64,000 bases of DNA from Patescibacteria group bacterium (GTDB lineage Bacteria; Patescibacteriota; JAQUNI01), in contig JAQUNI010000001.1 in the NCBI GenBank assembly GCA_028717685.1, positions 54,306 to 118,305 on the forward strand. The letters run 5' to 3'. Below are positions 437 to 64,000 of this stretch, in pieces. Each line of letters opens with the position of its first letter. The first letter of the stretch is position 1. Below the pieces are notes generated by a model. That model saw only the letters and a list, made by a program, of their open reading frames with translations, did no database searches and had not been told where the DNA came from. The translations under genes were made by a program, and so were the position numbers.

Positions 437-445
437 AAAGACGAA

Positions 446-829
446 TTACGAAGTACGAATTATAGTTTTAGTAGTTTTAATGAGGCCATTGATCATTTTA
501 CTAAGTTCAATGGTTTGGGTAGCTACAGGGTCAAAATCTTTATTGCTCAAATAGTTTATATCTCTGGCAATTAACAACTGATTTTGAACCTCGGTTAAGG
601 ATCCTAAAGCGCGGCAATAAAACTGCATCTTCTCTTTATAAGAAGGTCTACTAAATCCTTCAGCAATATTAGAAGTGAAAGAAACGGCTGCTCTCCTTAA
701 TTGGCTAGTTAAACCAAAGATTTCTTCTCTGGGAAATTTTTGGGTGACTTTGTAGATCATCAAGACTAATTTGTGTCCTTCTTTCCAAACTCGCAAATCG
801 GTAAAAGATTTAATTTTATTTTGATCCAT
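446..829 (-). CDS. four-helix-bundle protein (23S rRNA intervening-sequence protein / Avd-like fold family)
   Basis: 127 aa. Shares the conserved core with the two pilus-locus paralogs (W-x-K, LT-Q-RRAAVS-SNIAEG). Lies 10 bp from tRNA-Gln. Confidence 0.6.
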   Translation of the reverse strand: MDQNKIKSFTDLRVWKEGHKLVLMIYKVTQKFPREEIFGLTSQLRRAAVSFTSNIAEGFSRPSYKEKMQFYCRALGSLTEVQNQLLIARDINYLSNKDFDPVATQTIELSKMINGLIKTTKTIIRTS

Positions 830-873
830 GAAAATTGTTTATCCGTGATTCGTAATTCGGAATTCGTGATTCG

Positions 874-2397
874 CTATTTCACAATCTCCCCTCCCAAAAC
901 CTCCAGTGCTTCTTTAGTTAAATTGTTATTCTGTTGCAATTCTACCTTTTCACATTGAATCTGCCATTTGCCACCTAAGATTTGGTCTAAAACCCCTTCC
1001 ACTGTTTTTTTATTGCGGGCTTGAGAAACCATATCCTTATGGAAATCCCGCGGGAAACCCAAAACTAAAGAGCCATCGCGAAAAGCGACTGGCTGGCAGA
1101 GTTTCAAGAAAGCGCACAAAGAATAATTTAAAGGCTCCACCGCCTTTAACACCTCATTCCATTTACCTACCACCTGTTCTAAATTCATTGTCGGCTTTTG
1201 ATATTCGGGTAAGGAAGGAAATGATGTTTTTTCTTCTTTTTCTTCCAGTTTCGGGCTTTGGATTTTTTCCCGCGCTTCCGCTACCTTACCCATTGCTTCA
1301 CTATATTCTATAATGGCTAACTCCAAAGACAATTGAGGAATTAAAGCCGCATCCAAACTATTCTTCGCGGCCATAAAAAGCCTCACTAAATAGGCTAAAC
1401 TTTTCAGAGAGAAATTTTGGGCGCGAGCAACTAATTCTTCTTTTTGGGCAGAAGAAAAAGAAAGCCCGGCGTGATCCAGCAAAGCGGGCTGAACCTTAGC
1501 CAACATCATTCTGCGGAGATAATCAACAAGCTCGTCCGTAAAATTAAATAAGTCTTGACCATTGGCGACAGTCTCATTTACTTTGCGAATAGCTTGCGCA
1601 CTGTCGCAAGAAGCCAGCATATTCACGAAATCTGATATTAAAGACCAATCGACCGTGCCTAAAAAATCAGCCACTTTGCGGAGCTTGAGCTCTTTTTTGG
1701 GCCAAGAGAGAATCTGACCTAAAACACCTTCGGCATCCCGCTCCCCGCCGTCCGCTTTGATGGCGATCAATCTCAAAATCTCGGGGTTTAAAACGCGCTT
1801 CTCCTCCCTTAAAATCCGCGTTAAGCGGTGTTCAATTTCAGCGACGGTCAATTTTTTAAAATCAAATCTCTGACAGCGCGAGAGAATCGTCTCGGGCACT
1901 TCGTGCACCTCTGTCGTCGCTAAAATGAAAAGAGTATGCGGAGGCGGCTCTTCCAAGGTTTTCAAAAGAGCGTTAAAGGCTTCCCGCGTCAACATATGCG
2001 CTTCATCAATAATATAAACTTTAAAACTATCTCTTTGGGGCGCGAAACGCACATTCTCACGGAGAGCGCGAATTTCATTGATGCCGCGGTTGGAGGCGGC
2101 GTCAATCTCAACCAAATCCAATGACCTGCCAGAGGTAATCTCCTGACAACTCGCGCAACGGTTGCAGGGTTCCACCTTTCCGAGCCTGCGTTCGCGCGCG
2201 CTTTTTTTGTTCTGGCAATTAATCGCCTTAGCGAGAATGCGCGCCACGGTGGTCTTGCCAATGCCGCGAGGACCCGCGAAAATATAAGCATGGGCAATCT
2301 TGCCCAAGCTTAACTCATTCTTTAAAGTTTGGATAATGGCAGTCTGTCCTTCCATTTCAGAAAATTTTTGAGGTCTGTATTTACGATATAAAGTCAT
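874..2397 (-). CDS. dnaX: DNA polymerase III subunit gamma/tau
   Basis: 507 aa. Walker A GPRGIGKTT, zinc-binding cysteine cluster CNRCASCQ, clamp-loader AAA+ layout. Confidence 0.9.
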   Translation of the reverse strand: MTLYRKYRPQKFSEMEGQTAIIQTLKNELSLGKIAHAYIFAGPRGIGKTTVARILAKAINCQNKKSARERRLGKVEPCNRCASCQEITSGRSLDLVEIDAASNRGINEIRALRENVRFAPQRDSFKVYIIDEAHMLTREAFNALLKTLEEPPPHTLFILATTEVHEVPETILSRCQRFDFKKLTVAEIEHRLTRILREEKRVLNPEILRLIAIKADGGERDAEGVLGQILSWPKKELKLRKVADFLGTVDWSLISDFVNMLASCDSAQAIRKVNETVANGQDLFNFTDELVDYLRRMMLAKVQPALLDHAGLSFSSAQKEELVARAQNFSLKSLAYLVRLFMAAKNSLDAALIPQLSLELAIIEYSEAMGKVAEAREKIQSPKLEEKEEKTSFPSLPEYQKPTMNLEQVVGKWNEVLKAVEPLNYSLCAFLKLCQPVAFRDGSLVLGFPRDFHKDMVSQARNKKTVEGVLDQILGGKWQIQCEKVELQQNNNLTKEALEVLGGEIVK

Positions 2398-3019: not shown

Positions 3020-3050
3020 ATAGGCAGAGACGCAAGATTTTGCGTCTCTA
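3020..3050 (-). terminator. stem-loop just 3' of the 3051..3746 gene (candidate intrinsic terminator)
   Basis: agagacgc-aagatttt-gcgtctct hairpin abutting the stop codon; the U-tract is weak. Confidence 0.35.
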
Positions 3051-5889: not shown

Positions 5890-5965
5890 CTATTCTCCCT
5901 CCCCCTCCAACTCCCCCTCGGGCAGGGGGAGTGTAATCAAGCTTATCGCTAATAGACGATACATT
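5890..5965. repeat. GC-rich ~76 bp element, copy 1 of 2 (second copy at 26135..26210)
   Basis: ctattctccctccccctcc-aact-ccccctcgggcagggggagtgtaatcaagct..., about 90 percent identical to the second copy; contains the hairpin ccccc-tcgggca-ggggg. Confidence 0.6.
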
Positions 5966-12352: not shown

Positions 12353-12407
12353 AACAAAATATAGAGACGCAATTCATCATATCTCTATAACATATTGATT
12401 CTATTTT

Positions 12408-12448
12408 CTATAGAGACAGGTTTAAAATTTGTCTCTATAGTTTTTTTT
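12408..12448 (+). terminator. intrinsic terminator after recR
   Basis: Perfect 10-bp stem ctatagagac / gtctctatag with 13-nt loop, followed by T8. Confidence 0.7.
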
Positions 12449-12452
12449 ATTT

Positions 12453-12492
12453 ACCCCGTTAGATTCGGTTTAGAAATATATTTCTAAACGGG
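12453..12492. repeat. copy of the CCCCGTTAGA palindromic motif family
   Basis: ccccgttagattcg-gtttagaaatatatttctaaac-ggg; inner part is a perfect palindrome. Confidence 0.5.
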
Positions 12493-26258: not shown

Positions 26259-26293
26259 CCAAACAAAAACAGAGACGCAAAATTTCACGTCTC
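26259..26293 (-). terminator. intrinsic terminator after greA
   Basis: On the minus strand: agagacg-tgaaattttg-cgtctct followed by GTTTTTGTTT. Confidence 0.5.
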
Positions 26294-26322
26294 TACGCAT
26301 AAAATATTTATCATCCCTCTCC

Positions 26323-48931: not shown

Positions 48932-50707
48932 TTAGGGAAGGGCGCTTAAAACTTGAACTTCTATCTTTTTCTCCAAGGCAGGAACCTTTCGAACCCAAAA
49001 TGGCCAAAGGCGAATATCTACCTGCCGTACCTCCGCAAGCGATTGCAGATATTTTTGAGCCGCTTCTTTGTTTAAATTGACAATCTTTTCCTTAACCTTC
49101 CCCTCGTCAATTTTCCAAAATACCTCCTTTTCTATATGCACCGTCATTAGGGCTTTTTTTTCATTTAAATCAACGCTCTCTAACTTATAACTTACCCCCT
49201 CTTCAGAAAGATTAAGGATATATTTATCGGTTCCCAAAAGACTACTTACCGCGCGCAAGGCCGCATCCCGAGCCTCTTCTTGGGAAAAAATGAGCGCCCT
49301 CATTTGAATTTTAACGACGGTCTCAAATGTATCCGCTTCCTCGTCAACCTTCTTACTGTGTTTCACTTCCGAAACCTCGCTAATAAGCGCCCCCTCGGAT
49401 AAGGTAAACCCAGCAGGGAGATTATTATTAATTTCTGCGCGGGCGCTAGACGTGAGACTCTCAGTAATCGCTTTTTGCGCTTCCTCTAAATCCTTTTGGG
49501 TTACTATTTCTATATCGCGCGAAATTCCACCGACGAATGGATTACTGCTCTTCGCATAAATCTTCTCTTGTTTAGCGGGCGAAAAGGCCACGATGTAAAA
49601 ATCCGATGGTCCGATATTGCCTTCGGGACCAGCCTGATCCGCTACCACGCCGACCTTCACGCTGCCCGGAATCACCTTGCCTTCGCCAGAAACTGACGCA
49701 GGAGGAATAGTCACCTGACTTTCTGTCCGAAATAAAATATTTTCTCGCGACATTAAACGAGTAGTGGGCACAAGGAGCTGACTCACGCCCAATTCATTAT
49801 AAAGGATGACCTCTCCCCGCGCTTTTTCTAAAACCTGTTTCTTTCCCGTAGGTTTAAAAATTCGCGTTTCCTGTTTTTCCAAAGTAATGATCCGCCCGCT
49901 AATGCCCTCTTTTGAATTATCCGTTGCAGGGACGTCAGCTTTCACGACAAGGCTCACGTTCTCGCTCAAAGGTTCACTCTTGGGCACAATCGTAACCGTT
50001 GCCTTTGGTAAAATCAAAAAAATAATCACTAAAATCAGAAAAAAGCTAAAGCCGATAAATCCTAAACCCACTTTTGCCGAAAGAGAGGAAAGCCTTGTTG
50101 TTTTTCGTTTAGATCTCTTCTTTATCCTCCCTCTGTATTCTCTTTCGGGAGAAGGGTCCGGCGGGCGGGAAGAATCAGATTCCACAGGCGACGACCTCCG
50201 CCTTGGATCGGCGAGACTAGTCTGCCCAGAGGAAGAATCTTGCCGTAAAGGGTAAAACTTATTGCTCTTGGCACGGCGAATAATATCAGACACAGAGACC
50301 GCGGCCACGCCATCAGGGGACAAAAATGGATTGGCGGCTCGCGGAGAAGATTGACGCCAATCTTCTCTTTGCGGGATTGGATTTCCCATCTTCGTCTCTT
50401 GCGGCTTTTCAATCTCCGTAGTCAAGACTGCTTGGTTGCCTACTTTTTCTCGGACTTCTAAGCCGGCGCGAGTAGCCAGATGCTTCCCCAGTTGATCGGC
50501 GGTAACAATAATAATCTTTCGGCCTAAAATGTCACCCTGGCTTTTTAAAAGCTTCAGATTGATGAAACTTTGCGAGAGGAGAGCCCTTTGAGGAATTACC
50601 AAAATAATCTCTCTATCGGTAATCTTCCGAATCCGATCAATTACGCTCGTAATCTCTTCATCAATATCAATGTAAATGGTTTTCATAATAATAAACTCAA
50701 AGCTCAA
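48932..50707 (-). CDS. hypothetical membrane-anchored protein
   Basis: 591 aa; N-terminal soluble region, Ser/Pro/Arg-rich linker, single central TM (GLGFIGFSFFLILVIIFLIL), large C-terminal domain. No motif recognised. Confidence 0.45.
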   Translation of the reverse strand: MSFEFIIMKTIYIDIDEEITSVIDRIRKITDREIILVIPQRALLSQSFINLKLLKSQGDILGRKIIIVTADQLGKHLATRAGLEVREKVGNQAVLTTEIEKPQETKMGNPIPQREDWRQSSPRAANPFLSPDGVAAVSVSDIIRRAKSNKFYPLRQDSSSGQTSLADPRRRSSPVESDSSRPPDPSPEREYRGRIKKRSKRKTTRLSSLSAKVGLGFIGFSFFLILVIIFLILPKATVTIVPKSEPLSENVSLVVKADVPATDNSKEGISGRIITLEKQETRIFKPTGKKQVLEKARGEVILYNELGVSQLLVPTTRLMSRENILFRTESQVTIPPASVSGEGKVIPGSVKVGVVADQAGPEGNIGPSDFYIVAFSPAKQEKIYAKSSNPFVGGISRDIEIVTQKDLEEAQKAITESLTSSARAEINNNLPAGFTLSEGALISEVSEVKHSKKVDEEADTFETVVKIQMRALIFSQEEARDAALRAVSSLLGTDKYILNLSEEGVSYKLESVDLNEKKALMTVHIEKEVFWKIDEGKVKEKIVNLNKEAAQKYLQSLAEVRQVDIRLWPFWVRKVPALEKKIEVQVLSALP

Positions 50708-50736
50708 ATGTCAAAACTCAAAACTACAGGTCAAAA

Positions 50737-51096
50737 CTAAAAATTTTTCTTTTTATATTTTTTTAAAAGTTGATTTAATATTTTCAATAAAGGTTTTCGC
50801 CAATCATCTTCTAACTGAGATTTGATGAGTTGCACTAATATCTTATCTCCTGAAGTCAGATGCAATTTTTCCAACTTTTTACATTGAGCTAAAATTTCAA
50901 AATCAATATCGGTGGCTAAAACATATTTGCTTTTCTCTAATGGGGTTAACTGAAACTGCTTTGTCAATCTCTGTTTTCTTCTTTGAAGTAATTCCTGATA
51001 ATGCCTATCTTCTTTTAAAACTTTTCTTAATTTATATCCCTGATATCCTAGATTCAGATAAAAATCTTCAATCGCTTGCATTGATTTCTCTTGCAT
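50737..51096 (-). CDS. hypothetical protein
   Basis: 119 aa basic ORF immediately downstream of the FtsA-like gene on the same strand. Confidence 0.4.
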   Translation of the reverse strand: MQEKSMQAIEDFYLNLGYQGYKLRKVLKEDRHYQELLQRRKQRLTKQFQLTPLEKSKYVLATDIDFEILAQCKKLEKLHLTSGDKILVQLIKSQLEDDWRKPLLKILNQLLKKYKKKNF

Positions 51097-51118
51097 AACT
51101 TTTAACTTTTAACTTATC

Positions 51119-56289: not shown

Positions 56290-56705
56290 AGATTTGGTTT
56301 TAATTAGTTAAATTAATTGTCTAACTGCTATCCCGCTGCAGAGGCATCTTGCTTATATTATATCAAAAATTTTGGAAATAAAAAGGGCTATACCGCGAAC
56401 TTTTCGGAGGTCAGACGAAAGTCTGACAATTACCCTCGCGCGACCTCCGCGTGTCAAGCTTTCGCTTGACCTCCTTATGCGCGCCGCAACTTTTTGGAGA
56501 AAATAAAGATAAAACACGAAGCATTCTGCTACTGGGGCGCGTGCGTTTCTGGATTTCTGCTCCCTTGTCTCTTATCAAATATTTTGGTAATATTAGAATG
56601 TGGCAGGCGGTAATGTTCATATATAAAGTATTCCGCAATTTAATATTGCTAATAAATTATAATAAACTCGGGCAAAATCAATATAAAAACGGATAAGGGG
56701 AAAAA

Positions 56706-56861
56706 TTGGCTTATCATAAGGGAAAATTAGCCCATCTTGTCGATGTTTCCAATAATACGGTTACTGACATTAAAGCAGGAAAACAAGGTAATCTCACTAT
56801 AAGAAACTCTAAAAAAATCGCCAAAGCCCTCGGTATATCTGTGGATAATTTTTTAATATAA
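56706..56861 (+). CDS. small helix-turn-helix (XRE/Cro-type) protein
   Basis: 51-codon ORF with TTG start, not in the ORF track: HKGKLAHLVDVSNNTVTDIKAGKQGNLTIRNSKKIAKALGISVDNFL matches helices 2-5 of XRE-type HTH domains. Start codon uncertain. Confidence 0.35.
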   Translation: MAYHKGKLAHLVDVSNNTVTDIKAGKQGNLTIRNSKKIAKALGISVDNFLI

Positions 56862-56870
56862 TACATTCAT

Positions 56871-57242
56871 ATGGCAACAACAAAGAAAAAAATTCTCATC
56901 ATAGAAGACGAAAAGCCAATGGCACGCGCGCTTGAACTTAAACTCACGCACGCGGGCTTTGAGGTGAAAGCGGTATTTAATGGCGAGGAGGGAATCAAAC
57001 TTCTCCAAGAAGAAACCTACGCGCTCATCCTTCTCGATTTGGTAATGCCCAATGTGGACGGATTTATGGTACTGGAGATCCTTAAAGAGAAAAAAATAAA
57101 AACTCCGGTCATGGTTCTTACTAATTTGAGTCAAGATAAGGATGAGGAGCGTACGAAAGCGCTCGGCGCAAAGGAGTTTTTTATTAAATCCAATACGACA
57201 ATTGCAACCATCGTTGAGAAGGTAATAAAACTTCTAGAATAA
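56871..57242 (+). CDS. stand-alone response regulator receiver domain (CheY-like)
   Basis: 123 aa: KILIIEDEKPM (acidic pocket), phospho-acceptor Asp in ILLDLVMP, T/K in VMVLTNL...K. Confidence 0.8.
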   Translation: MATTKKKILIIEDEKPMARALELKLTHAGFEVKAVFNGEEGIKLLQEETYALILLDLVMPNVDGFMVLEILKEKKIKTPVMVLTNLSQDKDEERTKALGAKEFFIKSNTTIATIVEKVIKLLE

Positions 57243-57312
57243 CTATTTTCTTGTGAACCCCGCTAGAGTTATTTTTATGGTTAAAACGGGGAAAAAAATA
57301 AAAATATAAAAT

Positions 57313-59061
57313 ATGAAGGACAAATTAAAAAACGATACAGTCAATTCCAACGGGGTGAAATTTGACGACAAAACAATAAAGAAGATTCTCTTAAAAGGGA
57401 ACTATATTACTGAAGAAGATGTTAAGAACGCGGATGATTTTGCCACAACGCACCAAGTGTCATTCATAGGGTATCTGCTCCAAGAAAATCTCATCACCAA
57501 GGACCTCTTGGGGCAGGCGATTGCCGAATCGTTCAAGGTTCCCTACGCTGACTTAAATTCAGCACCACCCGCACCTCTGCAGGTGCAAAAAATTCCGGAG
57601 GAGACCGCGAAAAAATATCACGCGGTTATTTTCGCTGAAGAAAAAAACAAAACCGTAGTCGCCACCGATAATCCAGAAGATCCAACACTCCTGCCGGAAT
57701 TAGAAAAGCTGTTTGTCGGCAGGAGGTTGAGCATTGTCTATTCGCTGACCGAGGACATCAACGCGAGCTTTGTGCATTATCAAAAGCCGCTTGAAACCCG
57801 CTTCTCTAAGATTATTGAGAGCAAAGGGCGAGTCGCGCCAGAGCTTTTGGAAGAAATTTTTGATGACGCGCTCGTATATCATGCCTCCGACATCCATTTT
57901 GAACCCAGGCAGAAAGATGTGCTTGTGCGGTTTCGCATTGACGGCGTTTTACAAGAAACCGGCAGGATCCCCAAAGAATATTACGAAAATATTCTTAATC
58001 GCATCAAGGTGCAAAGCGGTTTGCGCATTGATGAACACTTTGCCGCGCAAGACGGTTCGCTCCGGTATGAACCCTCCTCCTTTAAAGCTTCCTCCTACGC
58101 TAACGCTCCAGCGGGCAAAAAGGATAGCGTTGTTGTTGACCTTAGAACCTCAGTTGTCCCCACTGTTGAAGGAGAAAAAGTGGCATTGCGCGTACTCTCG
58201 GCATATGTGCAAGGATTTTCTCTTGGTGATCTTGGTCTTTCGCCGGCACATCAGCAGATACTTGAGCAAGCCGCCACAAAACCATTTGGCATGATTCTCG
58301 TAGCAGGTCCCACTGGTTCCGGAAAAACCACTACGCTTTACGCACTTTTGAAACTTGTAAATAGCCCAGAGGTGAACATCACCACTATTGAGGACCCGGT
58401 GGAGTACAGGGTGCTCGGCGTGAATCAAATTCAAATCAATCCTCTAACAAATCTCACTTTTGCCAAAGGACTGCGTTCTATCGTCCGCCAAGACCCGGAT
58501 ATTATTCTGGTCGGCGAGATTCGCGACGAAGAAACAGCAGAAATCGCCGTAAATGCGGCACTCACCGGCCATCTTCTCTACTCCACATTTCACGCCAACG
58601 ATGCCGCTACCGCCATTCCTCGGCTTCTGGATATGGGCATTGAACCGTTTCTTTTGGCTTCCACGCTTGAGGTTATTGTCGCCCAGCGACTCGTGCGTAA
58701 AATTTGCGAACATTGCCGGCATAGTGTTACCAAATCGGCAAATGATTGGAAGACGCCTCAGCTTCGGTCAGTTATGCCATATCTTTCCAAAAAGTCGATC
58801 ACGCTCTATGAAGGGAAGAAGTGCGAGATGTGCGGCTATACGGGGTACAAAGGACGAACTGCTATTTTTGAATTCATCCAAATCACTCCGGAGATGCGGA
58901 ATCTCATCTTACACTCCCCGTCAACTAAAGAAATCTGGCAACTCGCCAGTAAGGATGGTTCAAAAACACTTTTTGAAGACGGCATTGAAAAAGTTAAGAC
59001 TGGAGTAACCACAATAGAAGAGCTGCTTCGCGTCGCCGAACCGCCGCAGAAGAGTGGGTAG
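57313..59061 (+). CDS. pilB: type IV pilus assembly ATPase PilB (GspE family)
   Basis: 582 aa: N-terminal GSPII_E N1 domain, Walker A VAGPTGSGKTTT, Asp/His boxes, tetracysteine motif (CEHC...CEMC). Confidence 0.9.
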   Translation: MKDKLKNDTVNSNGVKFDDKTIKKILLKGNYITEEDVKNADDFATTHQVSFIGYLLQENLITKDLLGQAIAESFKVPYADLNSAPPAPLQVQKIPEETAKKYHAVIFAEEKNKTVVATDNPEDPTLLPELEKLFVGRRLSIVYSLTEDINASFVHYQKPLETRFSKIIESKGRVAPELLEEIFDDALVYHASDIHFEPRQKDVLVRFRIDGVLQETGRIPKEYYENILNRIKVQSGLRIDEHFAAQDGSLRYEPSSFKASSYANAPAGKKDSVVVDLRTSVVPTVEGEKVALRVLSAYVQGFSLGDLGLSPAHQQILEQAATKPFGMILVAGPTGSGKTTTLYALLKLVNSPEVNITTIEDPVEYRVLGVNQIQINPLTNLTFAKGLRSIVRQDPDIILVGEIRDEETAEIAVNAALTGHLLYSTFHANDAATAIPRLLDMGIEPFLLASTLEVIVAQRLVRKICEHCRHSVTKSANDWKTPQLRSVMPYLSKKSITLYEGKKCEMCGYTGYKGRTAIFEFIQITPEMRNLILHSPSTKEIWQLASKDGSKTLFEDGIEKVKTGVTTIEELLRVAEPPQKSG

Positions 59062-59067
59062 TAGGAT

Positions 59068-59084
59068 TAGTTGGTAGTTTGTAG
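59068..59084. repeat. left inverted repeat flanking four-helix-bundle gene 1
   Basis: tagttggtagtttgtag is the perfect reverse complement of 59468..59484. Confidence 0.7.
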
Positions 59085-59103
59085 TGAGTAGTTAGTAGTA
59101 AAT

Positions 59104-59463
59104 ATGAAAATTGAATCGTACGAAAATTTAATTGTGTGGCAAAAGTCAATGGATCTGGTGATTGCTGTTTATGCATTGACAGAAAAATTTCCAAAAGAAG
59201 AACTATACGGTTTAACTTCACAAATGCGCCGCGCAACTGTTTCAGTTCCTTCCAATATTGCGGAAGGTAGTAGGCGTGGTTCTCGAAAAAATTTTAGAAA
59301 TTTTTTACTCAATGCGTATGGTTCCAGTGCAGAGCTTGGGACTCAGATCAAAATCGCGAAACGGCTTTCATACGGAAAAACCAAAAATTATGAGCAAGCG
59401 GATGCACTGCTTGATGAAGTAATGCGCATGTTAGACAAATTGACGTATGGGCTCAAAGAATAA
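59104..59463 (+). CDS. four-helix-bundle protein (23S rRNA IVS-protein / Avd-like fold family), copy 1
   Basis: 119 aa (MKIESYENLIVWQKSMDLV...LTSQMRRATVSVPSNIAEG); about 92 percent identical to the copy at 61765..62124. Confidence 0.7.
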   Translation: MKIESYENLIVWQKSMDLVIAVYALTEKFPKEELYGLTSQMRRATVSVPSNIAEGSRRGSRKNFRNFLLNAYGSSAELGTQIKIAKRLSYGKTKNYEQADALLDEVMRMLDKLTYGLKE

Positions 59464-60886
59464 AAGTCTACAAACTACCAACTACAAACTACAAACTATC
59501 TTCCTAGGCAAAGAACGGGACTATTTTATTGAGAATTTAAGCATGCTGGTCGCCGCTGGCATGCCGATTTTGGGCGTTCTCGACTCCATTGCCAAAGAAC
59601 TGCGCTCGCGCCGCATGAAAAAAATTCTTGCTCTTATTCGGGAATATATTGAATCTGGCTCGCCAATTTGGAAAGCGCTTCAAACAACTAACCTGTTTGC
59701 CGACCACACTATCTCGCTTATCCGCCTTGGCGAAGAATCGGGAAAGCTTACGGAGAACTTAAAAGTGGTCGCGAATGAACAAGAAAAAAATCGGGTGTTC
59801 CACTCCAAGCTTCGTTCCGCCATAATGTATCCTGTATTCGTACTCTCACTCACGGTCATTATCGGTGTGGGCATTGCGTGGTTTATTTTGCCCAAGCTGG
59901 CGCTGGTGTTTGCCCAGCTTAAAATAACCTTGCCCCTTATCACAAAAATTTTGATCGGATCGGGAACATTTCTTGGCGAATATGGCCAATACGTCGTGCC
60001 CGCGGCAGTTATAGCAATATCAGTTATTTTTTTCTTTATTTTCTCATTTCCAAAAACAAAATTTATCGGGCAATTTATTTTATTTTCTTTGCCCGGCGTT
60101 AAACAACTTATTAAGGAAGTGGAGCTGGCGCGGCTCGGTTATCTTTTAGGCACGCTTCTTGACGCTGGACTGCCGGTAACCCAAGCGCTCAACTCGCTCG
60201 CAAGCGCTACCGAGATTGCGCCATACAAAAAACTCTACAAACACCTGCGCGACTCGGTAGAAGACGGCAATCCGTTCCGGAAAAGCTTTATTTCCTTTAA
60301 GCGCACTAATCATCTTATTCCCGAACCTATTCAGCAACTCATCGTCGCTGGTGAACAGTCAGGCACTCTTTCAGCAACTCTTCTTAAAATCGGAGAGACT
60401 TATGAAGCTAAAGCGGACACGACGACAAAAAATTTGACCGTGATTCTGGAGCCGATATTACTCGTCATCGTGTGGCTCGGCGTTGTAGCCGTGGCGTTAG
60501 CAGTGATTTTGCCAATCTACAGCCTTATCGGCGGATTTAACGCCAACCAGCCCGCAGCGGCACAGCCTCCTCCTGCCGAAGAACAGGTAATCAGTCCGCC
60601 GCCAAGTGTGGAAACAACAGCTCCAGATACAGAAACCGTGGAAGTAATACCCCCTCCGGATACAGAAATCATAGAGAAAAAACCAACAACGCTCCGCGTT
60701 CTTCCCACTAGCGTAGGGTATCTTAACGTGCGCGAGAAACCATCATTAACAAGTAAAATCGTCACGCGCGTTAAGCCGGGTGAAACATTTGAATACACTG
60801 AAAAAAACGAGAGCTGGTATAAAATTATTTTGCCGGATGGCAATTCCGGATGGGTGTTTGAAAAATATGTTGAAGAAAATGAATAA
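59447..60886 (+). CDS. pilC: type IV pilus platform protein PilC (GspF family) with C-terminal SH3b-like domain
   Basis: 479 aa: two GspF repeats and three TM segments, then a Pro/Thr/Glu-rich linker and an SH3b-like domain (YLNVREKPSLTSKIVTRVKPGETFEY...WYKI...GWV). ATG overlaps the 4HB stop. Confidence 0.85.
   Translation: MGSKNKSLQTTNYKLQTIFLGKERDYFIENLSMLVAAGMPILGVLDSIAKELRSRRMKKILALIREYIESGSPIWKALQTTNLFADHTISLIRLGEESGKLTENLKVVANEQEKNRVFHSKLRSAIMYPVFVLSLTVIIGVGIAWFILPKLALVFAQLKITLPLITKILIGSGTFLGEYGQYVVPAAVIAISVIFFFIFSFPKTKFIGQFILFSLPGVKQLIKEVELARLGYLLGTLLDAGLPVTQALNSLASATEIAPYKKLYKHLRDSVEDGNPFRKSFISFKRTNHLIPEPIQQLIVAGEQSGTLSATLLKIGETYEAKADTTTKNLTVILEPILLVIVWLGVVAVALAVILPIYSLIGGFNANQPAAAQPPPAEEQVISPPPSVETTAPDTETVEVIPPPDTEIIEKKPTTLRVLPTSVGYLNVREKPSLTSKIVTRVKPGETFEYTEKNESWYKIILPDGNSGWVFEKYVEENE
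59468..59484. repeat. right inverted repeat flanking four-helix-bundle gene 1 (also encodes the N-terminus of PilC)
   Basis: ctacaaactaccaacta; read in the pilC frame it encodes LQTTNYKLQT. Confidence 0.7.
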
Positions 60887-61038
60887 ACAAAACTAACAAA
60901 TGACACATAACATCTGACACATGACATTTGACACATATGAAACAAAAAAAATTATAGGAAAATAAAAGGGCATCGTCAGATGTTAGGTATCAGATGTTCC
61001 AAAAGGGTTTACCCAGCACCACTTTTTAGATTATAAAC

Positions 61039-61731
61039 ATGTATTACGTCTATACCTTAATTAGTAAGTTAAAAAATAAGACAGAAATATATATTGGATC
61101 AACAAATGATCTGAGAAGAAGACTAAGAGATCATAATAATGGTAAAGAAAGATCTACAAAACGTTATAGGACGTGGAATCTGATTTACTACGAAGCATAT
61201 ATAACAGAGAGTCTAGCAAGATTAAGAGAAAAACGATTGAAACATCACGGAAATGCGATGAAAGAATTAAAAAAAAGAATCGGATTATCCGAATGGAAAA
61301 GTGGTGCTGGGTTTACCTTGCTGGAAGTTCTTCTCTCTATCGCGGCGATCGCGATTATCGCCGTAATTTCTATTCCCATTTATCAGTCGTTTCAGGTGCG
61401 AAACGATCTTGATATCGCGACCATGGAAATTGCCCAAACTTTGCGGCGCGCGCAAGTACTTTCCCAAGCGGTTGATGGCGACACAAGCTGGGGCGTTTCT
61501 CTCGCAAGCGGAAATATCACGCTTTTTAAGGGCGTAAGTTACGCCACCCGCGATACCAATTTTGATGAAGTGTTTGATGTATCAACAAATATCACTCCAT
61601 CGGGACCTTCCGAAATCGTGTTTGTAAAATTTACAGGCTTACCACAGACCACGGGGACAATAATGCTATCCTCCAATATGAATGAAACGAGAAATATAGT
61701 AATTAACCAGAAGGGAATGGTTAATTATTAG
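61039..61731 (+). CDS. GIY-YIG nuclease domain fused in frame to a type IV prepilin
   Basis: 230 aa. Residues 1-90 are a complete GIY-YIG domain (YYVYTL...IYIGSTNDLRRRLRDHN...YYE...E). Residues 74-91 look like a prepilin leader (MKELKKRIGLSEWKSGAG) followed by the cleavage/methylation motif G/FTLLEV and a hydrophobic helix. Confidence 0.7.
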   Translation: MYYVYTLISKLKNKTEIYIGSTNDLRRRLRDHNNGKERSTKRYRTWNLIYYEAYITESLARLREKRLKHHGNAMKELKKRIGLSEWKSGAGFTLLEVLLSIAAIAIIAVISIPIYQSFQVRNDLDIATMEIAQTLRRAQVLSQAVDGDTSWGVSLASGNITLFKGVSYATRDTNFDEVFDVSTNITPSGPSEIVFVKFTGLPQTTGTIMLSSNMNETRNIVINQKGMVNY

Positions 61732-61736
61732 TTGGT

Positions 61737-61752
61737 AGTTTGTAGTGGGTAG
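61737..61752. repeat. left inverted repeat flanking four-helix-bundle gene 2
   Basis: agtttgtagtgggtag is the perfect reverse complement of 62129..62144. Confidence 0.7.
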
Positions 61753-61764
61753 TTGGTAGTAAAT

Positions 61765-62124
61765 ATGAAAATTGAATCATACGAAAATTTAATTGTGTGG
61801 CAAAAGTCAATGGATTTAGTGATTGCTGTTTATGCATTGACAGGAAAATTTCCAAAAGCAGAACTATACGGTTTAACTTCACAAATGCGCCGCGCGGCTG
61901 TTTCAATTCCTTCCAATATCGCGGAGGGGAGCAGGCGCGGTTCTCGGAAGGATTTTAGAAATTTTTTACTCAATGCGTATGGTTCTGGTGCAGAGCTTGA
62001 AACTCAAGTTAAAATTGCGAAACGACTTTCATACGGAAAAACCAAAGATTATGAGCAGGCGGACGCGCTGCTCGATGAAGTAATGCGCATGTTAAACAAA
62101 TTGACGTATGGGCTCAAAGAATAA
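61765..62124 (+). CDS. four-helix-bundle protein (23S rRNA IVS-protein / Avd-like fold family), copy 2
   Basis: 119 aa from the ATG at 61765 (the ORF track starts at an upstream TTG). Ten substitutions relative to copy 1. Confidence 0.7.
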   Translation: MKIESYENLIVWQKSMDLVIAVYALTGKFPKAELYGLTSQMRRAAVSIPSNIAEGSRRGSRKDFRNFLLNAYGSGAELETQVKIAKRLSYGKTKDYEQADALLDEVMRMLNKLTYGLKE

Positions 62125-62746
62125 AAATCTACCCACTACAAACTACAAACTACCCACTCAACAAGGCTTCAGCCTTGTTGAAGTTATTCTCGCCAGCGCG
62201 GTGTTTGTTTTGTTCGTTACCGCGCTTGTCGGAGCGTACCTCTATGGGCAGGAGTCAACCGCGCTTGCCGGCAATCGCGCGCGCGCGACGATTCTTGCCG
62301 AAGAAGGGCTTGAGGCAGTGCGCAATATCCGCGATGCCGGATTTTCTAATCTCACCGACGGCACCTACGGATTGGCTGTTGTCGGCAACCAATGGGCGTT
62401 ATTCGGAACATCAGACACAACGGGTATTTTTACCCGCCAAATTACAATTTCCGCTGTAGATTCAGAACGAAAAAGCGTGACTGCGAATGTCGCTTGGCAA
62501 CAAAATGCCCAGCGCCCGGGAGCAGTTGCCCTGACGACCTATCTTACTAACTGGAAAAAGGCGACTCCTGTCAATTCCTGCGATATTTACTGCCAGTTGT
62601 TGGGAACCTATACCACTGGTACCTGTCGGGAAAATTCCCAACAATGTACTAAGTATGACGAGATTTATGAGGCGGGCGGTGATCCTATTTGTGTGACTAG
62701 TTTTCCTGGCGACGCCAGCCATGATACTTGTTGCTGCAAACCATAA
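62108..62746 (+). CDS. type IV pilin-like protein with Cys-rich C-terminus
   Basis: 212 aa: leader MGSKNKNLPTTNYKLPTQQG, cleavage motif G/FSLVEV (Glu at +5), hydrophobic helix; eight Cys in the last 55 residues. ATG overlaps the 4HB copy 2 stop. Confidence 0.7.
   Translation: MGSKNKNLPTTNYKLPTQQGFSLVEVILASAVFVLFVTALVGAYLYGQESTALAGNRARATILAEEGLEAVRNIRDAGFSNLTDGTYGLAVVGNQWALFGTSDTTGIFTRQITISAVDSERKSVTANVAWQQNAQRPGAVALTTYLTNWKKATPVNSCDIYCQLLGTYTTGTCRENSQQCTKYDEIYEAGGDPICVTSFPGDASHDTCCCKP
62129..62144. repeat. right inverted repeat flanking four-helix-bundle gene 2 (encodes part of a prepilin leader)
   Basis: ctacccactacaaact; in the pilin frame it encodes LPTTNYKL. Confidence 0.7.
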
Positions 62747-62751
62747 TTTAG

Positions 62752-62823
62752 GGATTAGTTTGTAGTGAGTAGTTGGTAGGTTGTAGTTTTCTACTCACTA
62801 CTCACTACAAACTACAAACTAAC
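62752..62823. repeat. inverted-repeat hairpin of the leader-coding motif with no gene in the loop
   Basis: agtttgtagtgagtagttggtag...ctactcactactcactacaaactacaaact: the same arms that flank the 4HB genes, here adjacent, just upstream of the pilin ATG at 62824. Confidence 0.6.
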
Positions 62824-63348
62824 ATGCTACCAACTACAAACTACCAACTACAAACCCAGCGTGGCTTCACGCTAATTGAACTGCTTCTCTATGTTGCCGT
62901 TGCGTCGGCGATACTTTTGGCGATTTCGGTTTTTCTTTCAATCCTCCTTCAGTCGCGCATCAAAAATCAAACTATCGCTGAAGTGGAACAGCAGGGGCTT
63001 CAAGTTATGCAACTCGTTACGCAAACCGCGCGCAACGCCGAGGCAATCACCTCGCCAGCGCAGGGCGCAAGCGCTTCATCTTTGACGCTTGACGTTATTT
63101 CTGCTGCCAGTGACCCCACTATTTTTGATCTCGCAAGCGGCGCGATTCGCGTCAAAGAAGGGGCTGGTTCAGCTACCGCTCTTACTAATTCTCGCGTTAC
63201 CGCTTCCGCTCTCACATTCCAAAATCTCTCTCGCACCGACACTCCGGGCACGGTTCGCGTCCAATTCACCCTCGCACATACAAATCCAGAAGGCAGAAAT
63301 GAATACTCATTTACTAAAACATTTATCGGCTCTGCGAGCCTGCGCTAG
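62824..63348 (+). CDS. type IV pilin-like protein
   Basis: Start taken at ATG 62824 (ORF track: 62773). Leader MLPTTNYQLQTQRG, cleavage motif G/FTLIEL (Glu at +5), hydrophobic helix LLYVAVASAILLAISVF. Confidence 0.7.
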   Translation: MLPTTNYQLQTQRGFTLIELLLYVAVASAILLAISVFLSILLQSRIKNQTIAEVEQQGLQVMQLVTQTARNAEAITSPAQGASASSLTLDVISAASDPTIFDLASGAIRVKEGAGSATALTNSRVTASALTFQNLSRTDTPGTVRVQFTLAHTNPEGRNEYSFTKTFIGSASLR

Positions 63349-63480
63349 TCATAATGCGGCAAATGCCGCAACGACTGACACTTGATACCTAGCACCTGAC
63401 AACTGACCACTAACATCTAACATTTTGTTAGGTGTCAGATGCCAAATGTCAGGTGTTAGGTGCTAGGTGTCAAGTGTTAA

Positions 63481-63927
63481 TTGTATAGAACCAGGTTATT
63501 CACACTCATGATTATTTTAAAATATAAAAAGTGTTATAATAAACAGGAGGATGGGTTCATTACCCTAATAAGTGTCTTGGTGGTTGGAGCGGTTGGAATA
63601 GCCCTCACAATTTCCGTGATTTTGCTCGGGCTTGGGTCGTCGCGAACAAGTTTTACGAATGAGCAGTCAAACCAAGCGAAAGCCCTCACTAACGCCTGTG
63701 CCGAAGAAGCTCTTCAGCAAATTCGTGATTCTGTGAATTTTGAAGGTACCGGTAGCCTTACTTTAGGTCTGGGCAGCTGCACCTATACCGTGACCAAACT
63801 TGTTAGCCAGAACCGAACCGTCACCGCCAGCGGGACAGTGGGAACAATCATAAGAAAAGCAAGTATTGCTCTTGATACAATCAGACCGAGCATCAACATC
63901 ACTTCCTGGCAAGAGGTGGCTGATTAG
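63481..63927 (+). CDS. minor pilin/pseudopilin-like protein
   Basis: 148 aa: G/FITLIS followed by a hydrophobic helix (VLVVGAVGIALTISVILLG); Ser instead of Glu at +5. True start is probably an internal Met. Confidence 0.5.
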   Translation: MYRTRLFTLMIILKYKKCYNKQEDGFITLISVLVVGAVGIALTISVILLGLGSSRTSFTNEQSNQAKALTNACAEEALQQIRDSVNFEGTGSLTLGLGSCTYTVTKLVSQNRTVTASGTVGTIIRKASIALDTIRPSINITSWQEVAD

Positions 63928-64000
63928 TTAGTAGTTTGTAGTGAGTAGTGAATAAAAAACTACCAACTAACACGCTACCAACTACAAGCTAAATAAACAT
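63928..64000. repeat. further copy of the pilin-leader inverted-repeat motif at the window edge
   Basis: agttagtagtttgtagtgagtagtg...ctaccaactaacacgctaccaactacaagc; probably precedes another pilin-like gene beyond the window. Confidence 0.45.

Follow-up and report, generated by a model that had tools for sequence, protein, structure and literature searches.

How does a gene for a small four-helix-bundle (4HB) protein, bracketed by inverted repeats, come to stand between two prepilin genes, and why does the second of these prepilins take its start codon and most of its leader from that gene and its flank? The question is raised by a locus in a 64,000-nt stretch of contig JAQUNI010000001.1 (positions 54,306 to 118,305, forward strand) of a Patescibacteria group bacterium (GenBank assembly GCA_028717685.1); this stretch, at its full length, is referred to below as the window. 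The locus (module 2, 61729-62158) lies in a pilus gene cluster (57313-63927), whose long plus-strand open reading frames (ORFs) encode PilB, PilC, pilins, 4HB proteins and a fusion protein with a GIY-YIG domain. Our analyses make it likely that module 2 is one copy of a selfish, probably mobile cassette of ~430 bp, in which the 4HB gene occupies the loop of a hairpin with arms of heptamer repeats, and which has settled at a junction of the pilus operon.

A preliminary description of this DNA, made from the sequence alone, placed perfect inverted repeats around the 4HB gene at 61737-61752 and 62129-62144. These segments are indeed exact reverse complements, and the match is perfect over 18 nt (61735-61752 and 62129-62146) and extends to 24 nt at 96% identity (61729-61752 and 62129-62152). 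Perfect inverted repeats of at least 16 nt, lying no more than 800 nt apart, form 9 clusters in the window, compared with 0.13 per mononucleotide shuffle. Each arm of module 2 consists of 7-nt units repeated in tandem, (TAGTTKG)n in the left arm and (CTACMMA)n in the right, and the two can thus pair in many registers; the "perfect" arms of module 2 and of a second copy upstream (module 1, see below) come from different registers. The right arm is free of stop codons in the pilin reading frame.

The protein encoded in the loop belongs to the family named for the 23S rRNA intervening sequence (IVS) protein S23p. It matches PF05635 along the whole profile (positions 1-106 of 106; 136.7 bits, cutoff 33.8; E 4e-40) as well as TIGR02436 (130.1 bits, cutoff 24), and its residues 6-115 are homologous to the solved four-helix bundle of XCC0516 (PDB 2GSC; E 5e-27). 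No transposase or nuclease fold is recognizable in it. In the predicted RNA of module 2, a 23-bp stem formed by the arms closes the minimum-free-energy fold (z -6.65); for the module region, Rfam returned only sub-threshold matches to miRNA-like hairpins. A scan for sigma-70 promoters gave no more sites than were obtained in shuffled sequences. An intrinsic terminator was also considered and rejected, as the terminator scan missed the arm hairpins and its sole nearby match was a 10-bp palindrome inside the coding sequence (CDS) of pilin 2.

Both ends of the module form part of the neighboring genes. Pilin 1 has its stop codon in the left arm, at the first TAG (61729-61731). At the other end, the only in-frame ATG of prepilin 2 (62108) lies within the last 17 nt of the 4HB ORF, in a different frame, the 4HB stop codon being at 62122-62124; the native pilin 2 ATG has been lost in the window. 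The preliminary description had claimed an overlap between the pilin ATG and the end of the 4HB gene, and a leader encoded by the right arm. Both claims were borne out: the two frames overlap by 17 nt, and prepilin 2 begins MGSKNKNLPTTNYKLPTQQG/FSLVEV (the slash marks the cleavage site), with residues 8-17 encoded by the right arm. The sequence around the cleavage site is QQG/FSLVEVIL, with the Gly at -1 encoded by GGC at 62165-62167. In this Gly, the hydrophobic N-terminus, Glu at +5, the N_methyl motif (PF07963; 21.2 bits, exactly at the Pfam cutoff) and a basic leader (4 Lys), prepilin 2 has the features of a class III signal peptide, and the protein is 54-60% identical to pilin 2 of relatives. 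A separate observation on the cleavage sites concerns two palindromes centered exactly on the G/F codons, one in pilin 2 (62158-62181, 10-bp stem; CAACAAGGC TTCA GCCTTGTTG) and one in pilin 3 (62856-62875, 8-bp stem; AGCGTG GCTT CACGCT), which are not present in relatives.

Comparison with relatives distinguished empty and occupied forms of the same junction. Two relatives (L081 and L083), with PilB proteins 85% and 79% identical to that of the window, carry the same cluster (response regulator, PilB, PilC and four pilins), in which the genes overlap or are separated by 3-12 nt and in which there is no 4HB gene, GIY-YIG gene or hairpin. Pilin 2 of these relatives starts at an ATG within the 3' end of pilin 1 and has the leader MPKAWLVINQAG/FSLVEV or MPKVWSTTNQKG/FSLVEV. 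A third relative (L082) carries cargo-less arrays of other units at two junctions, and in L081-L083 a working-looking pilus operon is found without the 4HB gene.

The preliminary description had named absence of the modules from related genomes as grounds for doubt; modules are present there. The pilin 1/pilin 2 junction is occupied in L084-L091, L093, L094/L095, the contig carrying P0133, and L099. The closest homologues of the 4HB protein (P0126, P0130, P0122 and P0133; 81-87% identical) are encoded at this junction, between arms of the same family. In all three occupied lineages read as DNA (the P0133 contig excluded), the only in-frame ATG of pilin 2 lies within the last 4HB codons: L084 and L094 have ATGs at -17 and -8 in the 4HB 3' end, which give MNKNLQTTHYKLQTSNG/FSLVEV, and L093 has one at -8, which gives MDKILPATHYKLQTQQG/FSLVEA. 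At L099, a gene of a different 4HB subfamily (1027-1410; ~68% identical), with TAGCTTN arms, directly follows a GIY-YIG::pilin 1 fusion gene; the contig ends inside this 4HB gene, and the following gene is outside it. The pilin 1/pilin 2 junction of L099 thus holds a different cassette lineage.

The same 4HB subfamily as in module 2 is also found away from pilins, between two sensor kinase genes in L092 and, in L096 and L097, ahead of a substrate-binding protein gene. The -17 ATG is the start of this gene, and its frame continues across the arm, which yields MNLINKNLQTTHYQLLTK followed by a transmembrane segment. An in-frame ATG at -17 and/or -8 of the 4HB 3' end is thus shared by the window, L084, L093 and L096, and since it also precedes a gene other than a pilin gene (L096), it is a portable trait of the element subfamily and not one specific to pilins. 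Across modules of the TAGTTKG family the left arm comprises 4, 5 or 6 units, whereas the translated right arm always has 4, as would be expected from the shift in reading frame that a 7-nt change would cause.

A second copy of the cassette, module 1, lies 2.6 kb from module 2, at the junction of PilB and PilC. Its left arm supplies the end of PilB (KSG before the stop codon, versus PPQQK or PPQK in relatives). The PilC ATG and the right arm encode MGSKNKSLQTTNYKLQT, which displaces the native PilC N-terminus (MPKEPSKIVSPPRLFFTFGLGKERDYF in L081) and is followed by IFLGKERDYF. PilC, like prepilin 2, can start only at an ATG within the 4HB 3' end, and then reads through the arm. Modules 1 and 2 are homologous only from ATTAGTTGG in the left arm to CTACmmACT in the right arm, a unit of ~432 bp; the homology is bounded by the arms, and therefore the repeated unit consists of the arms plus the gene. 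The identity of ~92 percent reported earlier for the two 4HB genes was reproduced (91.3% at the nucleotide level and 91.6% at the amino acid level). The modules were also described as two independent occurrences, a count that has to be given up, as they are paralogous copies of one unit, with a synonymous divergence (dS) of 0.33 between the 4HB copies. Nor did an alignment of the two modules reveal the compensatory changes that had been suggested. Pairing scores of left with right arm are 43 within module 2, 42 within module 1, 47 for the left arm of module 2 with the right arm of module 1 and 52 with that of L084, so within the TAGTTKG family cross-pairing is about as good as self-pairing, and the comparison of modules 1 and 2 has to be rejected as evidence for compensation. 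Apart from the module, PilC of the window carries a C-terminal extension of ~100 amino acids (60520-60886; a Pro-rich linker and an SH3_3 domain), which PilC of L081-L083 (367-371 amino acids) does not have.

The coordinates of the cassettes and related features are given in Table 1.

Table 1. Cassettes, arms, reading frames and related features of the window; the entry for fusions in other lineages is numbered on the respective contigs.
Feature	Coordinates	Strand	Remarks
Left arm, module 1	59056-59100	+	Contains the final two codons of PilB and its stop codon (KSG, then TAG at 59059-59061)
4HB gene number 1	59104-59463	+	Paralogue of number 2
PilC start and right arm, module 1	59447-59498 (arm 59468-59498)	+	ATG within the 3' end of 4HB gene number 1
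Left arm, module 2	61729-61761	+	Heptamer array TAGTTGG TAGTTTG TAGTGGG TAGTTGG TAGTA
4HB gene number 2	61765-62124	+	119 aa; PF05635 / TIGR02436 (S23p / 23S rRNA IVS protein family)
Right arm, module 2	62129-62158	+	CTACCCA CTACAAA CTACAAA CTACCCA CT
Prepilin 2 CDS	62108-62746	+	212 aa; cleavage motif G/FSLVEV
Prepilin 2 chimeric leader	62108-62167	+	ATG in the 4HB 3' end, arm-coded LPTTNYKLPT, then native QQG
Module 3	437-876	-	Divergent 4HB gene (446-829) between inverted ACGAATY heptamer arrays; adjoins tRNA-Gln
Cargo-less hairpin, TAGTTKG family, pilin 2/pilin 3 junction	62750-62855	+	Fold z -4.6
Cargo-less hairpin, TAGTTKG family	63921-63985	+	Loop retains GAATAAAAA, the last 4HB codons
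GIY-YIG cassette in the pilin 1 leader	61005-61317	+	9-bp direct repeat and terminal inverted repeats
GIY-YIG::prepilin fusions elsewhere	L098 560-1276; L099 332-1027; L100 278-928		

Heptamer brackets are a property of the whole family. A scan with one genome per species yielded 589 relatives of the 4HB gene, of which the best 80 loci, spanning Patescibacteria, Bacteroidota, Acidobacteriota, Clostridia, Gammaproteobacteria, Planctomycetota and other phyla, were analyzed. Most are bracketed by inverted heptamer arrays (~80% of 82 PF05635 genes), with a unit that differs from locus to locus. In the 80-nt flanks, identity reaches 0.39-0.40 at lag 7; it is ~0.31 at lag 8, and 0.27 in the gene body and at most of the remaining lags. 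Upstream arrays commonly follow the pattern (NNNNYAG)n and downstream arrays (CTRNNNN)n, with YAG and CTR, respectively, enriched in phase. As a universal rule this was rejected: it is a majority pattern, and module 3 and many cargo-less hairpins are without YAG. Stop codons in all three frames were likewise rejected as the reason for heptamers, being present in only 44 of 82 upstream arms. The genes neighboring the 80 loci are unrelated. No rRNA was detected by Rfam in positions 56500-64000 of the window or in the 40 related loci scanned; judged by these data, S23p elements in rRNA look like the exception and hairpin cassettes at gene junctions like the rule.

When all left arms of the 82 modules were compared with all right arms, the mean inverted-repeat score was 32.4 within and 15.8 across modules. 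The best partner of a left arm was its own right arm in 46 modules, and its own right arm ranked among the top three in 62, while arm similarity between modules fell to background below ~60-70% protein identity. The arms diverge between loci and yet stay complementary within modules, which indicates fast turnover with complementarity kept. Real co-variation is therefore family-wide and far broader than modules 1 and 2; of the co-varying arms claimed earlier, the notion that arms and gene act as one unit stood, with complementarity far above chance across the family, and co-variation specific to these two modules did not. Mismatches in 60 stems comprise 80 G:U and 85 A:C pairs. Without a wobble bias of the sense strand the complementarity is strand-symmetric, so that pairing of the sense-strand RNA is not demonstrably selected, and selection on such a stem alone was rejected as an explanation. 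The complementarity could be kept at the DNA level (e.g., when template switching corrects quasi-palindromes) or arise anew on transposition.

The 4HB gene itself is under strong purifying selection (dN/dS 0.05-0.12, including the two copies of the window). In comparisons of the window or L084 with L093, the proportion of synonymous differences (pS) is 0.73-0.81 (saturated) for PilC and pilin 1, and 0.44-0.54 (dS 0.67-0.94) for the 4HB gene. This lower synonymous divergence, the empty sites in the closest relative and the occurrence of the same subfamily in unrelated contexts together suggest horizontal spread, with repeated landing at the pilin 1/pilin 2 junction. The copy between PilB and PilC (module 1) would be a later one, made within the genome.

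In our reading, the insertion replaced the native, overlapping junction of pilin 1 and pilin 2, so that prepilin 2, left without an ATG of its own, starts out of frame in the last 4HB codons, continues through the C/A-rich right arm and returns to the native leader before G/FSLVEV. From this arrangement we infer how the cassette could be accommodated. Ribosomes would stop at the TAG of the left arm, translate the 4HB gene, stop at its end and start again at 62108, 14 nt upstream, in a manner resembling the coupling of overlapping genes in the compact relatives, and PilC translation would be coupled likewise to 4HB termination at module 1. The arm-coded residues of prepilin 2 would lie in the cytoplasmic leader and be cut off at G/F by the prepilin peptidase; since the residues of the element would be removed with the leader, the insertion would be nearly harmless. 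In PilC and the substrate-binding protein, the arm residues would be retained, forming a short tail in the cytoplasm. Because one heptamer more or less moves the frame by one, an array can put any downstream gene in frame. The cassette would spread to gene junctions within and between genomes. Given the selection on the 4HB gene, its Avd-like fold and its constant association with heptamer arrays, the obvious hypothesis is that the 4HB protein may bind these arrays.

Heptamer arrays are abundant in the window beyond the modules. With stringent settings, 25 arrays were found (0.3 in shuffles), all of them intergenic or at gene boundaries, many with other unit sequences and most without cargo. 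The hairpins occur in tandem and convergent spacers and in none of 7 divergent spacers, a weak trend (p ~0.05, an estimate) that is compatible with placement downstream of genes. At the pilin 2/pilin 3 junction, the right arm of the cargo-less hairpin contains the ATG (62824) and leader MLPTTNYQLQTQRG of pilin 3. The loop of the hairpin at 63921-63985 reads GTAGTGAATAAAAAACTACC, i.e., the inner end of a module left arm joined to the last 4HB codons, and this hairpin looks like an internal-deletion derivative of the full module, comparable to a miniature inverted-repeat transposable element (MITE). The 4HB protein of module 3 shows 44% amino acid identity.

Several further repeats were noted in the window. 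Two hairpins of the TGACAYM family (60895-60998 and 63371-63484) have a polarity reversed relative to the 4HB modules, the 5' arm being made of CTR-type and the 3' arm of YAG-type units; the second hairpin has 52-nt arms and an RNA fold with z -10.7. On the minus strand, a 119-codon ORF without a Pfam match (50737-51096, within 50693-51118) has an AAGTTAA array upstream and a TTTTGAG array downstream, which are weakly complementary, and it may be another kind of cargo. Three families of dispersed, intergenic palindromic repeats are also present: (i) CCCCGTTAGAAA..TTTCTAACGGGG at 12454, 16246, 16375, 34213, 36051 and 48728; (ii) TAGAGACGCAA..GCGTCTCTA at 3020-3050, 12362-12440 and 26270-26295; and (iii) CTCCCTCCCCCTCC..GGGCAGGGGGAG at 5895 and 26140.

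Module 2 has the structure of a known element. The IVS in the 23S rRNA of Coxiella burnetii is 428 nt long and has a 28-bp terminal stem, a loop that carries an S23p (PF05635) ORF, and tandem GACAGAT heptamers in a strain-dependent number; RNase III cuts it mid-stem, the ORF is decaying and apparently untranslated, and the authors regard the element as selfish (PMC4990558). With its 24-nt arms (96%), 23-bp stem, length of ~432 bp, period-7 arrays and variation in left-arm copy number, module 2 shares with the Coxiella IVS (similar S23p elements occur in Leptospira and others) a size of ~430 nt, a PF05635 ORF in the loop, a terminal stem of more than 20 bp and variable-number heptamers beside the ORF. 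The Coxiella IVS lies in helix 45 of 23S rRNA, and elements of the Coxiella/Leptospira type in helix 25 or 45, whereas the modules of the window lie between protein-coding genes. The neighboring genes of the window translate the arms or take stop codons from them, and the 4HB ORF is under purifying selection. Module 2 is thus a known element type (the S23p IVS) in a new setting, and the donation of a stop codon, a start codon and a leader to host genes is newly recognized.

The arms also resemble the intergenic heptamers of other bacteria, such as GGGAATC of Xanthomonas (70-75 convergent inverted pairs) and the STRR unit GGGGAYT of cyanobacteria (PMC4692102), and the TAACTGA repeats of Beggiatoaceae (PMC4679880). 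These are likewise tandem 7-nt units, often in inverted pairs, with a length that varies between close relatives; they have been discussed in terms of G-quadruplexes or regulation and with no link to 4HB genes (PMC4692102, PMC4679880). In the open-access literature we found no paper linking heptamer brackets to PF05635 genes outside rRNA. The arrays of the window differ in that they bracket a gene and are partly coding. Palindromic selfish repeats tolerated in or next to coding regions are otherwise familiar: translation runs in frame through Rickettsia palindromic elements, Correia elements are transcribed along with their neighbors and cleaved by RNase III, and repetitive extragenic palindromic (REP) sequences flank their RAYT gene in inverted orientation. 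None of these is known to consist of heptamer arrays or to carry a 4HB gene. A transposon or MITE with its own transposase, such as a REP/RAYT unit, was rejected, as the only ORF is the 4HB gene and there is no target-site duplication. The 4HB protein also shares a homologous fold with Avd (PF22296, NF033474), the accessory protein of diversity-generating retroelements (DGRs), which forms a pentamer and binds nucleic acid (PMC10053308). Membership in the DGR/Avd group was rejected on the scores (28.5 bits for bAvd, cutoff 40; 31.4 bits for NF033474, cutoff 80), and no reverse transcriptase or template/variable repeat pair was found in the pilus cluster.

The reading of module 2 as a selfish, mobile cassette has to be weighed against several observations that tell against it. 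Comparison with the empty sites revealed no target-site duplication at the module 1 and module 2 junctions, and the cassette encodes no mobility enzyme, its sole ORF being the 4HB gene. The low 4HB dS could result from constraint on synonymous sites and not from recent transfer, and the shared occupied junction could reflect ancient vertical inheritance with repeated loss. The lack of a wobble bias in the stems also counts here, as do RNase III processing, which is hard to reconcile with captured start codons, and the many cargo-less hairpins, which might mean that a host feature has received 4HB genes and that the arms are not element ends. RNase III leads to an unlikely alternative, in which the hairpin is a host-beneficial element of RNA processing or stability, cleavage or 3'-end protection sets the ratios of the cistrons, and the 4HB gene is incidental cargo. 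The near-perfect stem of 23-24 bp that closes the minimum-free-energy fold, the mid-stem cleavage of the homologous Coxiella element (PMC4990558) and the absence of the hairpins from divergent spacers fit this alternative. A cut in the arms would, however, be harmful here, as it would remove the pilin 1 stop codon and part pilin 2 from its sole ATG, and we have therefore ranked RNase III cleavage among the rivals and not as a step of the mechanism; in addition, close relatives do without any hairpin, stem mismatches show no G:U bias of the sense strand, and a gene under strong purifying selection is not inert cargo. It is improbable, too, that heptamer hairpins are a feature of the host found throughout its genome (e.g., terminators or the outcome of polymerase slippage), in whose loops 4HB genes land or survive. 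The number and diversity of the largely cargo-less arrays of the window speak for it, as do the intergenic heptamers of Xanthomonas and cyanobacteria, which include convergent inverted pairs and have no gene link (PMC4692102). The same arms and the same 4HB subfamily nevertheless recur together in unrelated contexts (the window, L084, L093, L092 and L096), the homology of modules 1 and 2 takes in the arms, the bracket accompanies PF05635 genes in many phyla, and one cargo-less hairpin (63921-63985) keeps the last 4HB codons in its loop.

The preliminary description envisaged a 4HB protein that binds the TTNYKLQT leader of the neighboring prepilin or the RNA stem, i.e., a dedicated pilus accessory factor. 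Its retention at the pilin 1/pilin 2 junction in several lineages, with overlapping frames, and the purifying selection on the gene would agree with such a role. We regard it as very unlikely, since the same subfamily is found beside substrate-binding protein and sensor kinase genes, module 3 adjoins a tRNA gene and the 80 loci have unrelated neighbors, while L081-L083 carry the operon but no 4HB gene; moreover, the leader peptide is a by-product of translated CTACAAA repeats, shared by PilC and the substrate-binding protein. Of the proposed coupling between 4HB gene and pilin, the supply of start codon and leader by the module thus gained comparative support, and the role of the 4HB protein for the pilin leader did not. 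It is scarcely credible, finally, that nothing here is functional or mobile and that a local segmental duplication with low-complexity flanks happens to leave an open frame through the arm. Modules 1 and 2 are paralogous and close together, and heptamer arrays pair promiscuously, but this explanation is largely refuted by the occupied and empty junctions of other genomes, the in-frame ATG kept in at least four contexts, the family-wide bracket and the fixed copy number of the right arm beside a variable left arm.

A second cassette lies next door, in the leader of pilin 1. The pilin 1 gene (61039-61731) is an in-frame fusion of a GIY-YIG domain with a prepilin, the GIY-YIG ORF starting at 61039. 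The direct repeat of the cassette, GGGTTTACC, occurs at 61005-61013 and 61309-61317 (consensus GGNTTYACM, corresponding to the G/F-T codons), and the terminal inverted repeats are at 61011-61026 and 61297-61312. Full-length GIY-YIG::prepilin fusions, 48-73% identical, were found in five other lineages, three of which have no internal Met near the junction. The terminal repeats (CAGCACCACTTTT and AAAAGTGGTGCTG in the window, CCGCACCACTTTT and AAAAGTGGTGCGG in L098, CCTCACCTTTTC and GAAAAGGTGAGG in L099) vary in concert from lineage to lineage: two substitutions are compensatory, and deletions in one arm are matched in the other. The final residues of the leader, KSGAG or KGEG, are encoded by the right repeat. 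The arrangement suggests that the nuclease may be synthesized within the leader and set free by the prepilin peptidase, in a way reminiscent of intein excision. Taken with the arm-coded leaders of pilins 2 and 3, the fusion further suggests that cleavable prepilin leaders may serve as safe harbors for selfish cassettes. Nothing linking GIY-YIG genes to prepilin leaders was found in the open-access literature. Stand-alone GIY-YIG homologues were also observed in a Flavobacterium relative (L067, 954-1166) and a Patescibacterium (L007, 4388-4585), in each case with part of the 5' end of the gene that follows duplicated directly beside it; the duplicated segments correspond to an rmlB-like N-terminus (KKILITGGAGF) and to a tRNA 5' half.

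A bolder extension of the selfish-cassette reading is possible, and we offer it tentatively. PF05635 genes with heptamer arms may be minimal mobile cassettes, distributed across phyla, that home to gene junctions, the 23S rRNA IVS being their best-known site; stop codons in all frames upstream, a linker without stops downstream and a portable ATG in the 4HB 3' end, the last of these in the present subfamily, would make them near-harmless. A 4HB pentamer might recognize the arrays for mobility or to hand on ribosomes, and the prepilin leader would be a preferred safe harbor, in support of which the adjoining GIY-YIG cassette is translated inside such a leader.

The PF05635 "23S rRNA IVS protein" family is very large and widespread and has no known function, and the rRNA context that gave it its name is exceptional here. 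The locus provides a testable case of the ends of a selfish cassette being absorbed into host genes, as a stop codon, a start codon and a leader peptide. Expression of the host operon may now depend on the cassette. Cleavable signal and leader peptides appear tolerant of such insertions. If the long-noted excess of intergenic heptamer repeats in bacteria is truly linked to 4HB genes, the association described here may give these repeats a genetic context.

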